Positions 1-11,850 of a stretch of 64,000 nucleotides of DNA are shown here, piece after piece (position 1 is the stretch's first letter; every line of letters begins with the position of its first letter). Origin of the DNA: an uncultured Acidobacteriota bacterium (lineage in GTDB: Bacteria; Acidobacteriota; Vicinamibacteria; Vicinamibacterales; Fen-181). The position numbers and the translations under genes are program-made. The notes beneath the pieces are model-generated. The model made no database searches. It saw nothing but the letters and a program-made list of their open reading frames with translations, and was not told the origin of the DNA. The stretch lies in NCBI GenBank assembly GCA_963776495.1, contig CAVZMW010000003.1, positions 196,326 through 260,325 of the forward strand. The letters run 5' to 3'.

Positions 1-503
1 TTCTGCACGGCGGCTCGGGCTTCGAGGCGATGCACGCCGACCTGGTCGAACAGGAAATCGAACATGAGCTTGGCGCTCGCGTCGAAGATCCCGGTCCCCC
101 AGAACTGGGACCCGAGCGCGGCTCCCCACTCAGCGGTCTCGAAGCGCGGATTGATCTGGCGAACCTGGAAGATCCCGATCGCGACGTCGTAGCCCTTCGG
201 CACGACGGCGAAGCAGATGTACCGGCCTTCCCGGCGCTCGGCCTGCGCCCACTCGATGAACCGCTCGAAGCCGGCGACGTCCGGCGGCGGGGTCGACATG
301 TAGCGACGCACTTCGGGCGTCGTCAGCATGGCGAACAGCGACGGCGCGTCGGAGCGGCGCACTTCGCGCAGTGTCACGACGCTGTCGGCGAGCTCGGGCA
401 CCTTCGCGGTCCAGTCCGTGTCTCCCTCCGGGCGGAAGGCGCCCGACGAGGGATGGACGATCTGCAACCCGGCCTCCAGCCTGAACGGTAGTTTCGCGCT
501 CAT
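1..503 (-). CDS. GNAT family N-acetyltransferase, RimJ/RimL-like (runs off the window start)
   Basis: Not in the ORF track. Manual translation from ATG 503: MSAKLPFRLE...VTLREVRRSDAPSLFAMLTTPEVRRYM...AEWGAALGSQFWGTGIF...LFDQVGVHRLEARAAVQ, typical of RimJ/RimL GNATs. ATGA overlap with the stop of the upstream protease (500-503). Confidence 0.88.
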   Translation of the reverse strand, partial: MSAKLPFRLEAGLQIVHPSSGAFRPEGDTDWTAKVPELADSVVTLREVRRSDAPSLFAMLTTPEVRRYMSTPPPDVAGFERFIEWAQAERREGRYICFAVVPKGYDVAIGIFQVRQINPRFETAEWGAALGSQFWGTGIFDASAKLMFDFLFDQVGVHRLEARAAVQ

Positions 504-2560
504 CGAATTGCACCCGAGGCAAGCATGTCGTTCACTCCCCACACGATGTTGTTCGACGAGACGCCCCACACGATGTTGGCGGCATCGAGATGTCCCCACA
601 CCGTATTCCCGGGGCCACCGGCCTGCCCCCACGCGACCTGGTCGGGCGACGTGAGGTCGGCGGCGCCGACGAGGTTCACGCCCCAGACGATGTTCACGCC
701 CCAGACAATGTTCACGCCCCAGACAATGTTGACGCCCCAGACGATGTTGTTGCCCCACACGATGTTCGAGCCCCAGACGATGTTCTCGGCCGAGGTGTCA
801 CCCGTGGGCACGCCCCACACGATGTTCTGGGCGTCCGTCCTGTCGACGCCCCACACGATGTTCTGGGCACTCGTCTTCTTGGTGCCCCACACGATGTTCT
901 GGGCGCTCGTCCTGTTGATGCCCCACACGATGTTCTGGGCGCTCGTCTTCTTGGTGCCCCACACGATGTTCTGACCCGAGGAGACGCCCCACACGATGTT
1001 GTTGCCCCAGCAGGGCGAATTGGTGAGCAGCACCGAGCCGGGCATCTGCCAGACGCCCCAGACGATGTTCTGTTCCCACAGCAGCGTCTCGTTGCCGATC
1101 GTCGTGCTCGGCACGGGCACCGGGGAGATCCACGGGCTGCCGTATGGCGTGTCGCTCTCGACCGCGTCGGCCAACTGGATGGCGCCGACCGCGTTCAGCC
1201 CGCCGCCGCCTTCGGTCAGCCGGTCGTATTCAGCGCCTTCGGCGTCGTGAACGGGGAACGCCGAGTACTGGAGGATGGCCTTGATCGTGTTGGCCGACAG
1301 CGCGCCATGGTGGCGGAAACCGTTCGTGCCGGCGGCCTCCATGGCGAGCGCCACCACGCCGGTGGTCACGGCGGTCGCCATGCTGGTGCCGGTCAGGCGC
1401 AGGTAGTGCCCGCCGAGGGATCCGGTCACCTGCAGAGTCGGGTAGCTGGTGTAGAGCGTGCTGCCCACGGCGCCGTTCGACACCAGGCGGTCGCCGGGGG
1501 CCACGATGTCCGGCTTGGCAAAGGCGTCGTACCAGCTCGGTCCGCGCGAACTGAACGGCGCCACCTCGTCGTCGGATCGCACCGACGTGCCCTGCGTGAG
1601 CAGCGCGCCGACCGTGATGGCGGAGGGCGCGTTGCCGGGAGAGGTGATGCCGGCGTAGCCGGGCTGGCCGGTCTCCGGGTTGATGCCGCAGTTGCCGGCG
1701 GCAGCGACGACCACCAGGCCGGCCTGCGTCGCCGCCTCGATGGCCTGGACGAGAGGATCCGACGAAGCGGGCTCGAAAATCGGGTGGCCGAGCGAGAGGT
1801 TGATGATGTCGACGTGCAGCCGCTGCCGGTTCGCGACGATGTACTCGATCGCGGTCACCACGTCGGATGTCCGCCCCTGCCCGTTGGCGTCGAGCACCTT
1901 GAAGATCGTCAGCCGCGCGTCCGGCGCGACGCCGGCGTACTGTCCGCCCGAAAGCGTTCCGTCCCCGGCGATGAGGCCGGCCACGTGCGTGCCGTGGCCG
2001 AAGTCGTCGTAGGGGGCGCCTCTCCGGATGGTCCCGCCGGTCAGGTCGTAGAAGGCCACGACGTTGCCCGCCAGGTCCCTGCTCGGCTGGACGCCGGAGT
2101 CGATGATCGCGATCCCCACGGACTTCCCGGTCGGCGAGCTGGCGTCGAGCCCCAGCGTCTCCCGCAGGAAGCCGGCGGCCGGACCCGGACGGTTCCACGA
2201 GACCCCGCCGGTCGGCGTCACGGTCGCGTCGGAGGAGATTGACAGGACGTCCGGGTTGGCGGCGAGGCCGGTCAGCGCCGTCGACGGCACGTCCAGCGCG
2301 AGGGCGCTAATCGAGGCGTGCTCTCCATGGATGCGATAGCCGCGGCCTTTGAGGCCGTCCATCACGGCGATGCGGGCGCCAGGCGCCGTGCGCACAATCA
2401 CGTGCTGCACGCCGCTTCCGGCGGCTTCCGCTGCCGCGAGAGCCCTGTCGAGTTTCTGGTTTCCGCTCTGCGCGGCAGCCGGGCCTGGAAGCCCCATAAG
2501 ACCAAATGCCACGAGTGCGGTGACGGCGGAGAGAGAGGAGAGGCGTTTCACGCCCGCCAT
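500..2560 (-). CDS. Secreted S8 (subtilisin-like) serine peptidase with C-terminal NIVWG repeat tail; start ATG 2560 or GTG 2551
   Basis: Catalytic motifs IIDSGV, HGTHVAG, AAGN, GTSMAT. Signal peptide MKRLSSLSAVTALVAFGLMGLPGPAAAQ, then a prodomain. The extra 85 N-terminal residues in the ORF track look non-coding. Confidence 0.93.
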   Translation of the reverse strand: MAGVKRLSSLSAVTALVAFGLMGLPGPAAAQSGNQKLDRALAAAEAAGSGVQHVIVRTAPGARIAVMDGLKGRGYRIHGEHASISALALDVPSTALTGLAANPDVLSISSDATVTPTGGVSWNRPGPAAGFLRETLGLDASSPTGKSVGIAIIDSGVQPSRDLAGNVVAFYDLTGGTIRRGAPYDDFGHGTHVAGLIAGDGTLSGGQYAGVAPDARLTIFKVLDANGQGRTSDVVTAIEYIVANRQRLHVDIINLSLGHPIFEPASSDPLVQAIEAATQAGLVVVAAAGNCGINPETGQPGYAGITSPGNAPSAITVGALLTQGTSVRSDDEVAPFSSRGPSWYDAFAKPDIVAPGDRLVSNGAVGSTLYTSYPTLQVTGSLGGHYLRLTGTSMATAVTTGVVALAMEAAGTNGFRHHGALSANTIKAILQYSAFPVHDAEGAEYDRLTEGGGGLNAVGAIQLADAVESDTPYGSPWISPVPVPSTTIGNETLLWEQNIVWGVWQMPGSVLLTNSPCWGNNIVWGVSSGQNIVWGTKKTSAQNIVWGINRTSAQNIVWGTKKTSAQNIVWGVDRTDAQNIVWGVPTGDTSAENIVWGSNIVWGNNIVWGVNIVWGVNIVWGVNIVWGVNLVGAADLTSPDQVAWGQAGGPGNTVWGHLDAANIVWGVSSNNIVWGVNDMLASGAIR
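536..1069 (-). repeat. Coding repeat: 15 NIVWG motifs plus NTVWG and QVAWG, in 12-aa (36 bp) and 6-aa (18 bp) periods
   Basis: Direct read of the protein tail; at DNA level, repeated ccccasacratgtt units on the + strand. Confidence 0.95.
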
Positions 2561-2563
2561 AAG

Positions 2564-2579
2564 AGCAATCCGCCGGCCA
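2564..2579 (-). promoter_or_regulatory. Putative sigma54 (-24/-12) promoter TGGCCGGCGGATTGCT
   Basis: Matches TGGC-N7-TTGCW with exact GG-N10-GC spacing. The predicted +1 near 2553 lies just before GTG 2551. An IHF-like site (2607-2619) and an inverted repeat (2627-2640) lie upstream. Confidence 0.5.
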
Positions 2580-2997
2580 GCCCGGCCAATTGCAGCAAAA
2601 GCCTTGTAAGTTGTTGAACATGATGGCGTTACAAATAACGTCCGGGCGCGGCCCCCCGCCGGTTCGGCTCGATCTTGTGCAGATACTGAACAACGCCCGG
2701 CGGGACCGGGTGGCCGATTCTTCAATTCGACCGTTTTCCCTGATGTTTTTGGCGTTTCGGCGATGTCATATTGCTGGACACGCGGGCGTCCGAACGGTGG
2801 CGCCCGTCGAAACACGCGCCTGAATCGTCAGATCTCTGGCGTTCGGCCGGGCGGGACCGGTACGCTGACGGCCGGGGTTGGCCCCGGTGCTGTTCTGAAT
2901 TGGAACAGACTCGGGAGTCCGGGGTGGGGAGGACAAAGGGGTGGCGCCGACCGACGGCGCAGCCCGGGGACGGCGGTGCCGTCCCCGGGTCGCCAGT

Positions 2998-4047
2998 TCA
3001 GATCGCCCAGCGCAAGAGGACGCCGCCCACGGTGAAGCCGGCTCCTACCGAGGCGAGCATGACGAGGTCGCCCTTCTTCAACCGGCCGTCCTGGACGCAC
3101 TCGTCGAGCGCGAGCGGGATGGTCGCCGCCGTAGTGTTCCCGTACTTCTCGAGATTGATGATGACCTTGGCCGGCTCGATCCCGAGCCGGTCGGCGGCCG
3201 CCGTGATGATCCGCCGGTTGGCCTGGTGCGACACGAACAGCGCGAGATCGCCGGCCGTCAGGCCGTTTCGCTGCAGGATCAGCCGGCTGACCTCCTCGGT
3301 CTTGCGCACCGCGAACTTGAAGACCGCCGAGCCGTCCTGCTTGACGTAGTGCAGGCGCTGGTCCACCGTCTCGCGGGTGGCGGGCCTGAGGCTGCCGCCG
3401 GCGGGCATGTTGAGCGACACGCCGCCGCTGCCGTCGATCTCGTGGGCGAAATCGAGGATCGCGAGGGAGGGGTCCCTCGCCGCGCTCACGACGACGGCGC
3501 CGGCGCCGTCGCCGAACAGCACGCAGGTGGCGCGGTCGGTGTAGTCGATGATGCTCGACATCACGTCGGCGCCGACGACGAGCGCGTGGTCGTGGCGGCC
3601 GGTCGACACGAGCTGGCTCGCGGTGGCCAGCGAGAAGTTGAAGCCGGAGCAGGCGCCGGCCAGGTCGAAGCCCCAGGCGTGGTGGGCGCCGATCTTGTTC
3701 TGGATGAGCGCGGCCGTGCTCGGGAAGAACATGTCCGGCGTCGTCGTCCCGACGATGATGAGGTCGATGTCGTCCGGCGTCAGGCCGGCCTGCGCGATGG
3801 CCTTGAGGGCCGCCTGGGTGCCGAGGTCCGAGGTGGCGACGCCGGGATCGACGACGTGGCGCGTGTGAATGCCCGTGCGCTGCAGGATCCACTCGCTGGT
3901 CGTGTCGACCATCTTCTCGAGGTCGGCGTTGGTCAGCAGGCGGGGCGGCACGTAGGTGGCCAAACTGGTAATCTCGGTGGGCCGCCCGCAGCCCAGTCCC
4001 GAGGGCCGATGGTCCGGAATGAGGGTCTGACCGTCGTCGCTCGCCAC
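2998..4047 (-). CDS. fabH: 3-oxoacyl-ACP synthase III
   Basis: GACSGF (Cys), SHQAN (His) and YGNT (Asn) triad motifs; AAGGAGG RBS before GTG 4047. Confidence 0.95.
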   Translation of the reverse strand: MASDDGQTLIPDHRPSGLGCGRPTEITSLATYVPPRLLTNADLEKMVDTTSEWILQRTGIHTRHVVDPGVATSDLGTQAALKAIAQAGLTPDDIDLIIVGTTTPDMFFPSTAALIQNKIGAHHAWGFDLAGACSGFNFSLATASQLVSTGRHDHALVVGADVMSSIIDYTDRATCVLFGDGAGAVVVSAARDPSLAILDFAHEIDGSGGVSLNMPAGGSLRPATRETVDQRLHYVKQDGSAVFKFAVRKTEEVSRLILQRNGLTAGDLALFVSHQANRRIITAAADRLGIEPAKVIINLEKYGNTTAATIPLALDECVQDGRLKKGDLVMLASVGAGFTVGGVLLRWAI

Positions 4048-4089
4048 TCGTCCTCCTTACGAAAAGGCTCAGGGCTCAAGGCTCGGGGC

Positions 4090-5109
4090 CTACAGCAGTC
4101 TCTGCTCTCTCTCCGGCGCGCGCAGGCCGAAGTAGTCGTACGCCCGCGCCGTCGCCACCCGGCCGCGCGGCGTGCGGTCGAGGAAGCCGATCTGGAGCAG
4201 GTACGGCTCGAAGATGTCCTCGATCGCGTCCTTTTCCTCCGAGATGGCGGCCGCGATCGTGCCGAGGCCCACCGGCCCGCCGCCGAACTTGTCGACGATC
4301 GTGCGCAGCAGCCGGCGGTCGATCTCGTCGAGCCCGTGCTCGTCCACCTCGAGCATCTTCAATCCCGCGATTGCGGCGTCGAGGGTGATCTCGCCGTCGC
4401 CGCGCACCTGCGCGTAGTCGCGCACGCGGCGCAGCAGCCGGTTGGCCACGCGCGGCGTGCCCCGGGACCGGCGCGCGATCTCGTCGGCGGCACGAGGCTC
4501 GATGCTGACGCCGAGCAGGCGGGCCGACCGCCGGACGATCTCCTGCAGGTCCACCTCGCCGTAGAAGTCGAGGCGGTGGACGATGCCGAAGCGGCTGCGC
4601 AGCGGCGAGGTCAGCAGCCCGGCGCGCGTCGTCGATCCGATCAGGGTGAACTTGGGGACCGGCACCTTGATCGACCGCGCGCTCGGCCCCTGCCCGATCA
4701 TGATGTCGAGCTGGTAGTCCTCCATCGCGGGATAGAGGATCTCCTCGATGGTCGGCGACATCCGGTGGATCTCGTCGATGAAGAGCACCTCGCGCTCCTT
4801 GAGGTTGCTCAGCATCGCGGCCAGGTCGCCCGGCTTCTCGAGCACCGGCCCGGAGGTGGACCGCACGGGCACGCCCAGCTCGTTGCCGATGACGTAGGCG
4901 AGCGTGGTCTTGCCGAGGCCTGGCGGGCCGTAGAGCAGCACGTGGTCGAGGGCGTCGCCCCGCTGCTTGGCGGCGGTGATCGACACGACGAGGTTCTCGC
5001 GGATCCGCTCCTGCCCGACGTACTCGTCGAGCGTGCGCGGCCTGAGGCCGGCCTCGAACTGCGTGTCGTCGTCCACGCGGGACGGCGTGATGATCCGGGA
5101 ATCGCTCAT
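4090..5109 (-). CDS. ruvB: Holliday junction branch migration DNA helicase RuvB
   Basis: [43 protein letters not shown] motifs. Confidence 0.98.
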
Positions 5110-5198
5110 TTCAGGCTGCCGGCTGCCGGCTGCCGGCTGATGGCCAGGCCGTCGGTCGTCGGCCGTCGGTCGTCAGCCCGCAGAACCACAGCGGGCCC

Positions 5199-5798
5199 TT
5201 ACCCCATTCGTCTCAGCGCGCTCCTCAGCAGCCGCTCGAAGGTCCGCTCGCCGGCTGCCCCGAGCGCGTCGTCGACGGCCTTCTCCGCAAGAGCGCGATG
5301 ATATCCCAGATTGAGCAGCGCCGAGAGCAGATCGGCGCGAAGCTCGGCCTCGCCAGACGCCGTCCCGACGGCCGCCGCCGCTTCCTCCGCCCACGGCTGT
5401 TTCAGGCGGTCCTTCAGCTCGAGACCGATCCGCTCGGCCGTCTTCCGGCCCACGCCGGGGATCTTGGTGAGGCGGGCGAGGTCGCCCGACTGCACGGCGC
5501 GGACGAGGTCGGCCGGGTCGATCCCGGACAGCACGGCCAGGGCGAGCTTGGGGCCGATGCCGCTGATCGCGATCAGGCGTTCGAACACCAGCTGCTCGAG
5601 CGCGGTCGCGAACCCGAACAGCACGATCGCGTCCTCGCGCACGTGCGTGTGGACGCGCAGCGCCACCTCGCCGCCCGGGTCCGGCAGGTGGTAGAAGGTG
5701 GACAGCGGGACGAGCACCTCGTAGCCCACGCCGCCGACGTCCACCACGAGGCGCGTGGCTTGCTTCTCGACGAGGCGGCCCGTCAGGCGTGCAATCAT
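5199..5798 (-). CDS. ruvA: Holliday junction branch migration protein RuvA
   Basis: MIARLTG start, VGGVGYEV, SGIGPKLA, PGVGRKTAERI. Confidence 0.97.
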   Translation of the reverse strand: MIARLTGRLVEKQATRLVVDVGGVGYEVLVPLSTFYHLPDPGGEVALRVHTHVREDAIVLFGFATALEQLVFERLIAISGIGPKLALAVLSGIDPADLVRAVQSGDLARLTKIPGVGRKTAERIGLELKDRLKQPWAEEAAAAVGTASGEAELRADLLSALLNLGYHRALAEKAVDDALGAAGERTFERLLRSALRRMG

Positions 5799-5886
5799 GT
5801 CGGTTCCGGCTGGCGGCTCGCGACTGGCGGCTGGCGGCCCCGTCGCGCACGACATCGCCGCAAGTCGCAAGCCGCGGGCCGCGAGT

Positions 5887-6429
5887 CTAATCCCGCTTCA
5901 CGTCCCGCCACGACCGCGGCTTCCCGCGCGCCTGGCGCAGCGCATCGGCGACGGCCGGCGGGCCCTGGCTGTGGACGTGGCAGATGGCCACGGCGAGCGC
6001 GTCGGCCGCATCGTGCGGCGTCGGCACCTCGGCCAGGCCCAGGATCATCCGCACCATCTCTCCGACCTGCTGCTTCTCGGCGCGGCCGTAGCCGACAACG
6101 GCCTGCTTGATCTCGGCCGGCGTGTACTCGGCGACGGCGTATCCACCCTCGACGGCCGCCAGCATGGCGACGCCGCGGGCGTGTCCCAGCTTGAGGGCGC
6201 TCCGGACGTTCGCCGCGTAGAAGACGTTCTCGATCGCGACCACCTCGGGCCGGTGTTCGGCCAGCAGGGCGGCCAGGCCCTGGTGGATCCGGAGCAGTTG
6301 TGCGGGAAACCCAAGGCGCGGCGATGTGACGATGGCGCCGCACGTCACGAGACGGTGGCGGCTGCCGTCGGTCTCCACGCACCCGTAGCCGGTGCGCTCG
6401 GAGCCGGGATCGATCCCGAACACCTTCAC
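5887..6429 (-). CDS. ruvC: Crossover junction endodeoxyribonuclease RuvC
   Basis: GIDPGS, AIENVF, YGRAEKQQV, DAADALA. Confidence 0.97.
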   Translation of the reverse strand: MKVFGIDPGSERTGYGCVETDGSRHRLVTCGAIVTSPRLGFPAQLLRIHQGLAALLAEHRPEVVAIENVFYAANVRSALKLGHARGVAMLAAVEGGYAVAEYTPAEIKQAVVGYGRAEKQQVGEMVRMILGLAEVPTPHDAADALAVAICHVHSQGPPAVADALRQARGKPRSWRDVKRD

Positions 6430-7175
6430 GAGAGCGAAGCCTCGATCTCCTTCTCGTCGATGTCCACGTTCGACCAGACGTGCTGGATGTCCTCGTGGTC
6501 CTCGAGCATATCGAGCAGCCTGAGCATCGACTGGGCTTCCTTGCCGGTCAGCGTCACGAATTCGGCCGGCACCATCGCAACCGCCGCGCTCAGAGGCTCG
6601 ACCTCGAGCTTCGTCACCGCTTCGCGCACCGCGTCGTACGCGGCCGGCGCCGTCAGGACTTCCCAGCTGTCGCCGTCGTCCACCATGTCGTCGGCGCCCG
6701 CCTCGAGCACCGCCGCCATCAGGACGTCCTCGGCCACCCTGGTCTTCTCGATGATGATCTGGCCCTTCTTGCTGAACTTGCGGAGGGCGGTGTTGCGGTC
6801 GGCCATCTTGCCGTTGTACTTGTCCAGCAGGTGGCGGAGCTCGCCGACGGTGCGGTTCTTGTTGTCGGTCAGGCCCTCGAGGATGATCGCCGTCCCGCCG
6901 GGGCCGTAGGCCTCGTAGACGACCTCTTCGTAGTTGACGCCGGGTTCCTCGCCGGTGCCGCGCCGGATGGCGCGCTTGATGTTCTCCGCCGGCATGTTGG
7001 CGGCCTTCGCCTCGGCGATGATCGTGCGCAGCCGGGGGTTGGAGTCGGCATCGCCGCCGCCGGCCCGCGCCGCGACGGAAATCTCCTTGATAATCCGCGT
7101 GAAGACGCGCCCGCGCTTGGCATCAGCGGCGCCCTTCTTGTGCTTGATCGTATGCCACTTTGAATGGCCGGACAT
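6426..7175 (-). CDS. yebC: YebC/PmpR family protein
   Basis: MSGHSKWHTIKHKK, YEAYGPGG; usual position upstream of ruvC. Confidence 0.97.
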   Translation of the reverse strand: MSGHSKWHTIKHKKGAADAKRGRVFTRIIKEISVAARAGGGDADSNPRLRTIIAEAKAANMPAENIKRAIRRGTGEEPGVNYEEVVYEAYGPGGTAIILEGLTDNKNRTVGELRHLLDKYNGKMADRNTALRKFSKKGQIIIEKTRVAEDVLMAAVLEAGADDMVDDGDSWEVLTAPAAYDAVREAVTKLEVEPLSAAVAMVPAEFVTLTGKEAQSMLRLLDMLEDHEDIQHVWSNVDIDEKEIEASLS

Positions 7176-10653: not shown

Positions 10654-11850
10654 ATGTTTTCGGCCTCGCACGATCCGCTCGCGGCCTGGCGCGACGAATT
10701 CCCGATCCTCCACCGCACGGTCTACATGATCAGCAACTCGCTCGGCGCGATGCCGCGCGACGCCGCCCGCTCGCTGGCCGAGTACGCCGACACGTGGGCG
10801 ACCCGGGGCGTGCGGGCGTGGGAGGAGCGCTGGTGGGAGATGGCGCTCGAGGTCGGCAGCGCCGTCGCCGCCATCGTCGGGGCCCCCGCGGGGTCGGTGT
10901 GCATGCACGACAACGTGACGTCGGCGCAGATGGCCGTGCTCTCGTGCCTGAAGCCCGAGGGGCGGCGTCGCACGATCGTCTGCACGGCGGCCGACTTCCC
11001 GTCGGTGATCCACCTCTACCGCGCCCAGGTCCCGCTCGGGTTCGACCTGCGCGTGGTGCCGGCGGGGCCGGACCTGAACGTGGACGAGCAGCGCCTGGTG
11101 GAGGCCATCGACGAGACGACGCTCCTGGTCGCCTTCTCGCACGTGCTCTTCCGGACCTCGTTCATCGTCGATCCGCGGCCGGTGGTGGAGCGCGCGCGCC
11201 AAGTCGGAGCGCTGACGCTGCTCGACGTCTACCAGTCGGCGGGGATCGTCCCGCTGGACCTGACCGGGCTCGGCGTCGACTTCGCGGCCGGCGGCTGTCT
11301 GAAGTGGCTGTGCGGCGGGCCGGGCAACGCGTTCCTCTACGCGCGCCCCGACCTGCTCCGGACGCTCCACCCGCGCTTCACCGGCTGGCTGGCGCTCACC
11401 CGCCCCTTTGCCTTCGACATCGACGAGGGCGAGCTGCGCGAGGACGCGTGTCGCCTGATGAACGGCACGCCGCCCATCCCGGCTTACTACGCCGCGCTGC
11501 CGGGTCTCCGGATCGTCGGCCGGGTTGGCGTGGACCGGATCCGCGAGCAGTCGAAGCGGCTGACGGCGCGCCTGCTCGAGCTGGTGGATCGGCGGGGGTG
11601 GCCGACGCCCACCTCGCGCGACCCGGAGCGGGTGGCGGGCACCGTCGCCATCGACGTCCCCGACGCGCTGCCGGCCTCGCGCGCGCTCAAGGCACGCGAC
11701 GTCCTCATCGACTACCGGCCGAAGGTCGGCATCCGGGTCTCGCCGCATTTCTACAACACGTTCGAGGAGATCGAACGCCTGGTCGACACTCTCGAACACG
11801 TGCTCGCGGAGCGAGCGTTCGGCGAGGCGCCGCCCACGAGGGTCACCTAG
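10654..11850 (+). CDS. kynU: Kynureninase-like class V PLP enzyme
   Basis: YMISNSLG, WATRGVRAW, LLDVYQS, GGCLKWLCGGPG (PLP lysine). Confidence 0.75.
   Translation: MFSASHDPLAAWRDEFPILHRTVYMISNSLGAMPRDAARSLAEYADTWATRGVRAWEERWWEMALEVGSAVAAIVGAPAGSVCMHDNVTSAQMAVLSCLKPEGRRRTIVCTAADFPSVIHLYRAQVPLGFDLRVVPAGPDLNVDEQRLVEAIDETTLLVAFSHVLFRTSFIVDPRPVVERARQVGALTLLDVYQSAGIVPLDLTGLGVDFAAGGCLKWLCGGPGNAFLYARPDLLRTLHPRFTGWLALTRPFAFDIDEGELREDACRLMNGTPPIPAYYAALPGLRIVGRVGVDRIREQSKRLTARLLELVDRRGWPTPTSRDPERVAGTVAIDVPDALPASRALKARDVLIDYRPKVGIRVSPHFYNTFEEIERLVDTLEHVLAERAFGEAPPTRVT

Follow-up and report, generated by a model that had tools for sequence, protein, structure and literature searches.

An S8 subtilase with a C-terminal NIVWG-repeat tail and its GNAT neighbour in Vicinamibacterales

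The window considered here is a 64,000-nucleotide (nt) stretch of contig CAVZMW010000003.1 (assembly GCA_963776495.1, positions 196,326 to 260,325), from an uncultured member of the Acidobacteriota in the order Vicinamibacterales. At its left edge lie two adjoining genes: a complete gene for a secreted subtilase (S8 protease) with a C-terminal tail of NIVWG repeats, and the beginning of a gene for a RimJ/RimL-type GNAT acetyltransferase (Table 1). A first-pass annotation, made from the sequence alone, had described an intact secreted S8 protease, a tail of 15 NIVWG motifs separated by a listed series of spacers, and an ATGA overlap with the acetyltransferase gene. The open reading frame (ORF), the Pfam matches and the motif count bear out this description, including the overlap at 500-503. 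It needs a minor amendment only, in that both genes lie on the minus strand and the window holds just part of the GNAT gene. The two genes recur together in related genomes and the tail has counterparts on thousands of proteases, which bears on what the pair may do, as we discuss below.

Table 1. Features of the protease-acetyltransferase locus and of the adjoining genes, in window coordinates.
Feature	Position	Strand	Basis
RimJ/RimL-type GNAT gene (Acetyltransf_3), first 167 of 221 codons, cut at the window edge	1..503	-	Pfam, database identity
ATGA overlap, protease TGA / GNAT ATG	500..503	-	ORF coordinates
Pre-pro-subtilase (S8) gene with C-terminal NIVWG-repeat tail, complete	500..2560	-	ORF and translation; Pfam PF00082, 163 bits; thousands of homologues
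Repeat array, residues 498-675, 15 exact NIVWG	536..1069	-	Motif count, Tandem Repeats Finder, family consensus
Conserved tail start, residues 471-520, holding the first NIVWG	1001..1150	-	AlphaFold2, homologue landmark
Peptidase_S8 catalytic domain, residues 145-438	1247..2128	-	Pfam, invariant columns, closest solved structure 3afg (Tk-SP)
Catalytic residues D154, H189 and S393	2099-2101, 1994-1996 and 1382-1384	-	Alignment
N-terminal propeptide, I9-like alpha/beta fold, about residues 31-130	2171..2470	-	AlphaFold2 and Foldseek
Sec-type signal peptide, residues 1-30 (MAGVKR, hydrophobic core, AAA/QS cleavage site)	2471..2560	-	Read from sequence
Intergenic region between fabH and the protease gene, 437 bp, presumed promoter region	2561..2997	-	Inference only
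Housekeeping block upstream	2998..7175	-	
fabH	2998..4047	-	
ruvB	4090..5109	-	
ruvA	5199..5870	-	
ruvC	5887..6429	-	
ORF in the position of a YebC-like gene in related loci	6426..7175	-	

The protease ORF runs from an ATG at 2558-2560 to a TGA at 500-502 and encodes 686 amino acids (aa). The stop-to-stop frame around it reaches upstream to 2815; the ATG at 2560 is preferred as the start because a typical Sec signal peptide comes directly after it, and an orthologous locus with 78% identity (L001) keeps the signal-peptide segment after this ATG. AlphaFold2 gives residues 1-31 a predicted local distance difference test score (pLDDT) below 50 and places confident elements of the propeptide at residues 39-115; the best Foldseek and sequence matches are the pro-forms of Tk-SP and Tk-subtilisin. 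The Peptidase_S8 match (PF00082, E = 1.2e-47) scores 163.1 bits against a gathering cutoff of 21.8. The protein has the Asp-His-Ser order of subtilases, the DSG, HGTH and GTSMA motifs and the oxyanion Asn, and D154, H189, N290 and S393 are invariant across an alignment of 60 sequences. The full-length AlphaFold2 model, for which a 60-sequence alignment was used, has a pLDDT mostly above 90 over residues 40-520, with short low-confidence loops, and matches pro-Tk-SP in Foldseek at E = 6e-29, that is, a subtilisin fold with an N-terminal propeptide. Up to the tail, the protein is an unremarkable pre-pro-subtilase, and its catalytic part adds a new member to a known family. The anti-phage S8 system IetS/IteS was considered for the protease and rejected (70 bits against a cutoff of 900); PADLOC matches cover the S8 domain only, and the GNAT has no PADLOC match.

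The remaining 189 aa form the tail. Units of 12 aa (four of them) and 14 aa (one), a run of 6-aa units and a non-repeat element, VNLVGAADLTSPDQVAWGQAGGPGNTVWG, are among the components of its array, and the tail also holds the degenerate motif copies NLVG, QVAWG and NTVWG. The spacers read, in order, TKKTSAQ, INRTSAQ, TKKTSAQ, VDRTDAQ and VPTGDTSAE, followed by six of a single residue. At the DNA level, Tandem Repeats Finder reports an 18-bp array (x 6.6) at 668-785 and a 36/72-bp array at 812-973. The 15 cores are encoded by four distinct DNA versions, and the codon variation among them mirrors codon bias only. A search of the whole 64-kb window for N[IVL][IVL]W[GSA] gave zero matches in the other five reading frames; long plus-strand ORFs at 525-974 and 590-2242, with PHTMF or HAPDDV repeats, are reverse-complement shadows of the repeat array in high-GC DNA and not genes. 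The L001 orthologue has two long units against four in the window protein, a difference in copy number that is typical of repeat slippage.

The protein is one of a large family. A protein search with the protease returned 5988 significant matches, and in 106 of the best 120 homologues at least eight motif copies follow the catalytic domain (range 5-21). Thousands of Vicinamibacterales S8 proteases bear 5-21 copies of the family consensus, (D/E)NIVWG(T/N/S), in arrays 190-330 aa long. A scan of species-representative genomes confirmed at least 551 relatives, and the 79 loci that were kept are labelled Acidobacteriota or Vicinamibacterales almost without exception. Three contigs that bear the locus, which is otherwise typical of acidobacteria, but are labelled Bifidobacteriaceae or Betaproteobacteria in the records of metagenome-assembled genomes (L039, L062 and L049; RuvB 71-78% and FabH 71-72% identical) and a database protein labelled Planctomycetes (P0005) probably owe these labels to binning errors. 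When the tail alone was compared, without a profile, with 1.84 billion representative proteins, 418 matches came up, of which the best 150 were screened by a catalytic-motif pattern and 10 of those by Pfam. Among the screened matches the long proteins bear the S8 triad and many of the short ones start inside the S8 domain; apart from S8, Pfam recognised only Ice_binding, in one protein, and a partial GNAT, in one ORF. Likewise, each ORF with at least three motifs at the 79 loci is an S8 gene or a frameshifted S8 fragment. The array is found essentially only on S8 proteases.

Some members of the family depart from the usual layout. Database protein P0195 has an Ice_binding (PF11999) beta-solenoid domain between an S8 remnant and the NIVWG repeats, and P0156 is a single ORF that passes from S8 through the tail to the start of Acetyltransf_3, either as a fusion or by read-through. 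The C-terminal ends also differ: the window protein ends in ASGAIR, many relatives close with GGGF, GGGL or GGIF, and the last few residues of others are basic (RR, KR or GR). These ends could be an unrecognised sorting or processing signal.

The arrangement of the repeats is regular across the family. Motif-to-motif distances cluster at 6, 10, 11, 12 and 13 residues. The commonest unit, of 10 residues (n = 279), reads N-I-V-W-G-T-phi-D-G-D, where phi is hydrophobic, and is constrained at nine of its ten positions: NIVWG is followed by T in 80% of the units, a hydrophobic residue in 73%, D in 49%, G or D in 77%, and D or E in 88%. Units of 11-13 residues obey the same pattern. Non-repeat landmarks are shared as well, one at the N-terminal end of the tail, common to 90 of the 106 homologue tails, and a mid-array element, W-x-x-R-[LIV]-[LIV]-G, in about half of them, of which the version in the window protein is WGVNLVG. 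Because the spacers are position-specific, the non-repeat landmarks conserved and the array confined to S8 proteases, the array may best be regarded as a structural repeat. Beta-solenoids are marked by ladders of Asn, by stacks of aliphatic and of aromatic side chains and by turns that bind Ca2+; since the unit has an invariant Asn, two aliphatic residues, an aromatic one, a Gly turn and an acidic, Gly-containing turn, the array is probably solenoid-like and possibly binds Ca2+.

A structural repeat fits these features better than the cassette of peptide cores that the first-pass annotation had seen in the tail. There the tail was taken for a multi-core precursor from which the protease excises many Trp-containing peptides (NIVWG with or without flanks), to be acetylated by the GNAT. 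The 5-7-residue core is indeed extremely conserved, both between repeats and between proteins only 40-50% identical in their catalytic domains, and its copy number varies from 5 to 21, as could be expected of peptide cores. The flanks, however, give the idea little support. No cleavage or recognition sequence is conserved beside the cores, the spacers range from 0 to about 9 residues, some cores directly abut, and the spacers are constrained by position, in an array with fixed landmarks, as in a structural repeat. Nor does the protease fall within PatA/PatG, an S8 family known to mature such precursors, whose model (TIGR03895) matches it at 53 bits against a cutoff of 421.

The product of the second gene, as far as it lies in the window, matches Acetyltransf_3 (PF13302) with E = 2.6e-21 and 77.2 bits, against a gathering cutoff of 25.4. 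Its 167 aa agree at every position with P0283, a database protein of 221 aa that bears the whole domain (86.2 bits, same cutoff). The acetyl-CoA motif, QFWGTG, fits Q/R-x-x-G-x-G/A, with G136 invariant and W135 and G138 conserved in at least 90% of 27 sequences. Among solved structures, TTHA1799 and proteins that bear the label RimJ/RimL family come closest (E about 1e-10); an NCBIfam scan of the GNAT gave no equivalog match. An N-terminal extension of ~40 aa is conserved and contains an invariant W31 and P36. The protein is a RimJ/RimL-type GNAT with a full Acetyltransf_3 domain. Unlike the protease, it lacks a signal peptide, in agreement with the caveat raised at the outset that a cytoplasmic acetyltransferase is set beside an exported protease.

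The two genes are linked in both directions. At the 79 genome loci, a GNAT gene is next on the same strand after 69 of the 90 repeat-bearing S8 genes with room downstream, and in almost all of these pairs its start is no more than about 50 nt away from the S8 stop. Conversely, an S8 gene with an NIVWG tail stands directly upstream of 46 of 50 GNAT genes on metagenome contigs that extend at least 300 nt upstream. The first-pass annotation had named a GNAT that is not syntenic in homologues as something that would refute its reading, and this refutation fails. Of 145 related GNAT genes, 24, for the most part the closest orthologues, have the 4-base NTGA overlap. At least four genomic contexts harbour the pair (between ruvCAB-fabH and queA, as in the window; after ABC-permease genes; near a BioA-like aminotransferase gene; and alone), and it is often found in the tandem arrangement S8-GNAT-S8-GNAT. 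The S8-GNAT pair is a genuine conserved two-gene module. A search for a link between subtilases, GNATs and ribosomally made peptides that are modified after translation (RiPPs) found nothing relevant in the searchable literature, and the module is undescribed in searchable libraries and literature.

The adjacency could nevertheless be meaningless, the acetyltransferase being a housekeeping RimJ-like enzyme that merely lies downstream in the lineage of the window. Housekeeping genes do surround the pair in the window's context, with ruvCAB and fabH upstream and queA, tilS and ftsH downstream; the GNAT is missing after 21 of the 90 repeat-bearing S8 genes; and its sequences have diverged less than those of the protease (mean distances of 0.40 and 0.50; paralogues within a locus 66-91% and 39-75% identical), with no sign of co-diversification. 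Against this, the pair recurs in at least four unrelated contexts, GNAT genes collected independently from metagenome contigs mostly have an S8 tail directly upstream, the two genes are joined by overlaps or short gaps only, and one database protein runs on from the tail into the GNAT. Because the association is bidirectional and the pair has been duplicated as a unit, we consider accidental linkage improbable.

Other neighbours recur near members of the family. S8-NIVWG paralogues that lack a GNAT are usually followed by a gene for a PAS-GGDEF-EAL membrane protein of ~800-900 aa, a class that acts in cyclic di-GMP signalling; it lies downstream of the S8 gene at loci L028, L036, L037, L048, L053, L059 and L066-L069, and is a second recurrent neighbour of the NIVWG protease family. 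Two ABC-permease genes precede tandem S8-GNAT-S8-GNAT arrangements at L019, L022, L023, L031, L034, L070 and L074. Pfam confirms one permease as BPD_transp_1, and the DppB/DppC-like (peptide-type) label comes only from reading the sequences; if it is correct, it hints at a link to peptide uptake. On metagenome contig SXGQ01439263.1 (L134), a fabH-like gene is accompanied by a GNAT gene, with no S8 gene or NIVWG motif in about 900 nt upstream of the GNAT, and this lineage may have lost the protease gene.

Taking the tail and the pairing together, we favour, with a probability of roughly 0.55, the reading that the window encodes a secreted pre-pro-subtilase of a large, Vicinamibacterales-specific subfamily, in which the tail is a repeat domain for binding, anchoring or assembly and the GNAT is a dedicated cytoplasmic partner. 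The protease would be exported by the Sec pathway, fold with the propeptide as chaperone and then lose it, as other subtilases do. Outside the cell, the NIVWG array would fold into an elongated beta-rich module resembling a solenoid or a roll, in which each unit provides one short strand (N-I-V-W) with an Asn ladder, an aliphatic/Trp stack and a Gly turn, and the acidic D-G-D turn of most family members could bind Ca2+. Such a module may serve as a non-catalytic domain that tethers the protease to a polymeric surface, either the cell's own envelope or exopolymer or an insoluble substrate, and its copy number would drift through repeat slippage. The GNAT gene would be co-transcribed with the protease gene and, in the clade of the window, translationally coupled to it. 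As a best guess, held with low confidence, the enzyme might act on the protease precursor before export, akin to the acyltransferases of RTX proteins; the main alternative is that it acetylates imported degradation products.

Several observations weigh against this reading. AlphaFold2 gives most of the array a pLDDT below 50, both in the full-length run and in a run with the tail alone (107-sequence alignment), and thus yields no confident fold for it. The tail matches no Pfam or NCBIfam model in scans of these libraries, and a PDB sequence search with it at E up to 10 returned 0 matches. The beta-solenoid-like domain that the first-pass annotation offered as its alternative suits the repeat better than a cassette does but, given these scores in both runs, is a candidate fold only. 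Nothing relevant to the repeat motif was found in the searchable full-text literature, and judged from Pfam, NCBIfam, the PDB and that literature, the tail is an undescribed repeat family. The spacers of the window protein itself are basic or polar (TKKTSAQ-like) or a single residue long and have no acidic D-G-D turn, so the Ca2+ idea is not directly transferable to it; the window clade is atypical, its acidic turns having been swapped for TKKTSAQ-type or 1-residue spacers. As to the GNAT, a binding-domain model by itself leaves the tight linkage unexplained, and the N-termini of the signal peptides vary, which argues against N-alpha-acetylation of the precursor. A mirror-tree comparison found the S8 and GNAT distances barely correlated (Pearson 0.24, Spearman 0.01), which gives no support for a co-evolving physical pair; the target of the GNAT would therefore be something conserved, not something that co-diversifies with it.

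The one part of the tail that is modelled with confidence is its start, as short beta strands beside the catalytic domain (pLDDT 81-95 in the full-length run and 76-92 in the tail-only run). Packing of this kind would also suit a C-terminal pro-domain or secretion helper, which assists passage across the outer membrane or folding there and is afterwards cut off and broken down, a course of events described for the aqualysin-type subtilases that Gram-negative bacteria make. The host is a diderm, the protease has a Sec signal only, with no recognised sorting signal, and the restriction of the tail to S8 proteases agrees with such a role. Arrays of 190-330 aa with 5-21 copies and a fast change in copy number are, however, unusual for a chaperone-like pro-domain, searches of Pfam, NCBIfam and the PDB turned up nothing that resembles a known C-terminal pro-sequence or an autotransporter barrel, and strands of this length could not cross a membrane. 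We regard this role as unlikely. An outer-membrane beta-barrel of the autotransporter type was rejected, as the strands have only 4-6 residues and some runs are loop-free.

The low pLDDT of the array, together with the dedicated, syntenic GNAT, would also agree with production of acetylated peptides from the tail, and enzyme-fused multi-core precursors exist elsewhere, in the BURP-domain burpitides of plants and the borosins of fungi. This proposal has to be set against the surroundings and the chemistry of the array. When the neighbours of related loci are compared, the GNAT alone is conserved beside S8-NIVWG genes, the others being housekeeping or locus-variable, and no conserved exporter, second tailoring enzyme or immunity gene is found nearby. 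Core and spacers are almost amine-free: across the family, 26% of spacer residues are Asp and 0.4% are Lys, so that no free amine would be present before cleavage, and N-terminal acetylation must follow it. Cleavage by an exported zymogen would take place outside the cell, out of reach of a signal-less GNAT that depends on acetyl-CoA. With the constrained spacers, the landmarks and the want of a cleavage motif, this mismatch of compartments speaks against a cassette, and we hold excision of peptides and their acetylation to be very doubtful. An arrangement adapted to the compartments, in which the exported protease cuts its own tail into Trp-containing peptides (e.g. xNIVWGx, as a signal or an antimicrobial) and the GNAT either modifies the precursor while it is still in the cell or deals with peptide that has been taken up again, seems to us just as doubtful.

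The surroundings of the pair in the window are those of many relatives. The same fabH/ruv block order precedes the S8-GNAT pair at about 30 related loci. The context beyond the window edge was taken from L001, where the pair is followed by queA, a deoxyhypusine-synthase-like gene, tilS and ftsH. A promoter and terminator scan of window positions 1-3100 gave no sigma-70 consensus match and nothing usable. Elsewhere in the window, ARAGORN calls a 92-nt tRNA-Ser(TGA) at 11630-11721 on the minus strand, inside long ORFs, whereas an Rfam scan of the whole window at gathering thresholds gave no RNA family; the call may be false.

Bacteria of the order Vicinamibacterales abound in soil, and S8-NIVWG genes number in the thousands in public data, with several paralogues within single loci. 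The family brings together three uncharacterised things: a repeat domain, a secreted protease that is almost always accompanied by a cytoplasmic acetyltransferase, and the duplication of this pair as a unit. The structure of the tail could turn out to be a beta-repeat fold not seen before or a binding module of a new kind, and the substrate of the GNAT could reveal modification of a protease before export or a link between extracellular proteolysis and cytoplasmic acetylation. A self-cutting tail with its GNAT would, if real, be a minimal two-gene, enzyme-fused system of peptide production in bacteria; this most exciting interpretation is not the best supported one. Should the tail merely be an anchoring domain, the result would be a useful annotation and no surprise.

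Among known systems, the protease is closest to Tk-SP of Thermococcus, with its beta-jelly roll (PDB 3afg), and to fervidolysin (1r6v), which are the best sequence and fold matches for residues 31-470 and share the pre-pro-S8 layout, in which a propeptide precedes the catalytic domain and a further, beta-rich domain is added at the C-terminal end. Here, by contrast, the C-terminal domain is a short-period Trp/Asn array with no sequence match or confident structural match, and enzymes of the Tk-SP or fervidolysin type are not known to have a partner GNAT. The array itself is reminiscent of the RTX beta-roll and the hexapeptide beta-helix in its short period, in the hydrophobic strand and Gly/Asp turn of each unit, in its Asn, aliphatic and aromatic ladders and, in most members of the NIVWG family, in its acidic turns. 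RTX proteins are, moreover, modified by a dedicated acyltransferase before export. The NIVWG array differs from both in its period (6 or 10-13 residues against 9 or 6x3), in its invariant Trp and in its Sec signal. Assignment to the RTX beta-roll (GGxGxDxUx) was rejected, as there is no HemolysinCabind match in Pfam, the period is different and no genes for a type I secretion system lie nearby; the left-handed hexapeptide beta-helix ([LIV]-[GAED]-x2-[STAV]-x) was likewise set aside, with no Hexapep match at E up to 0.1 and Trp where a small aliphatic residue is expected.

A second comparison is with multi-core RiPPs. The cyanobactin precursor PatE with its PatA/PatG proteases and the precursors of burpitides and borosins resemble the present system in carrying many copies of a short motif on one polypeptide and in the involvement of an S8 protease, and N-acetylating GNATs are sometimes found in RiPP clusters, as in those for microviridin and goadsporin. 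The NIVWG proteases differ from them in having no conserved recognition or cleavage flanks, exporter or cyclase, in placing the motif within a structured 10-residue repeat and in the mismatch of compartments. The acetyltransferase, finally, resembles RimJ/RimL N-alpha-acetyltransferases in its full-length Acetyltransf_3 match, its acetyl-CoA motif and its RimJ/RimL-annotated solved relatives; it is set apart from these enzymes by its ~40-aa N-terminal extension and by a gene that is tied to a secreted protease and not to ribosomal genes.

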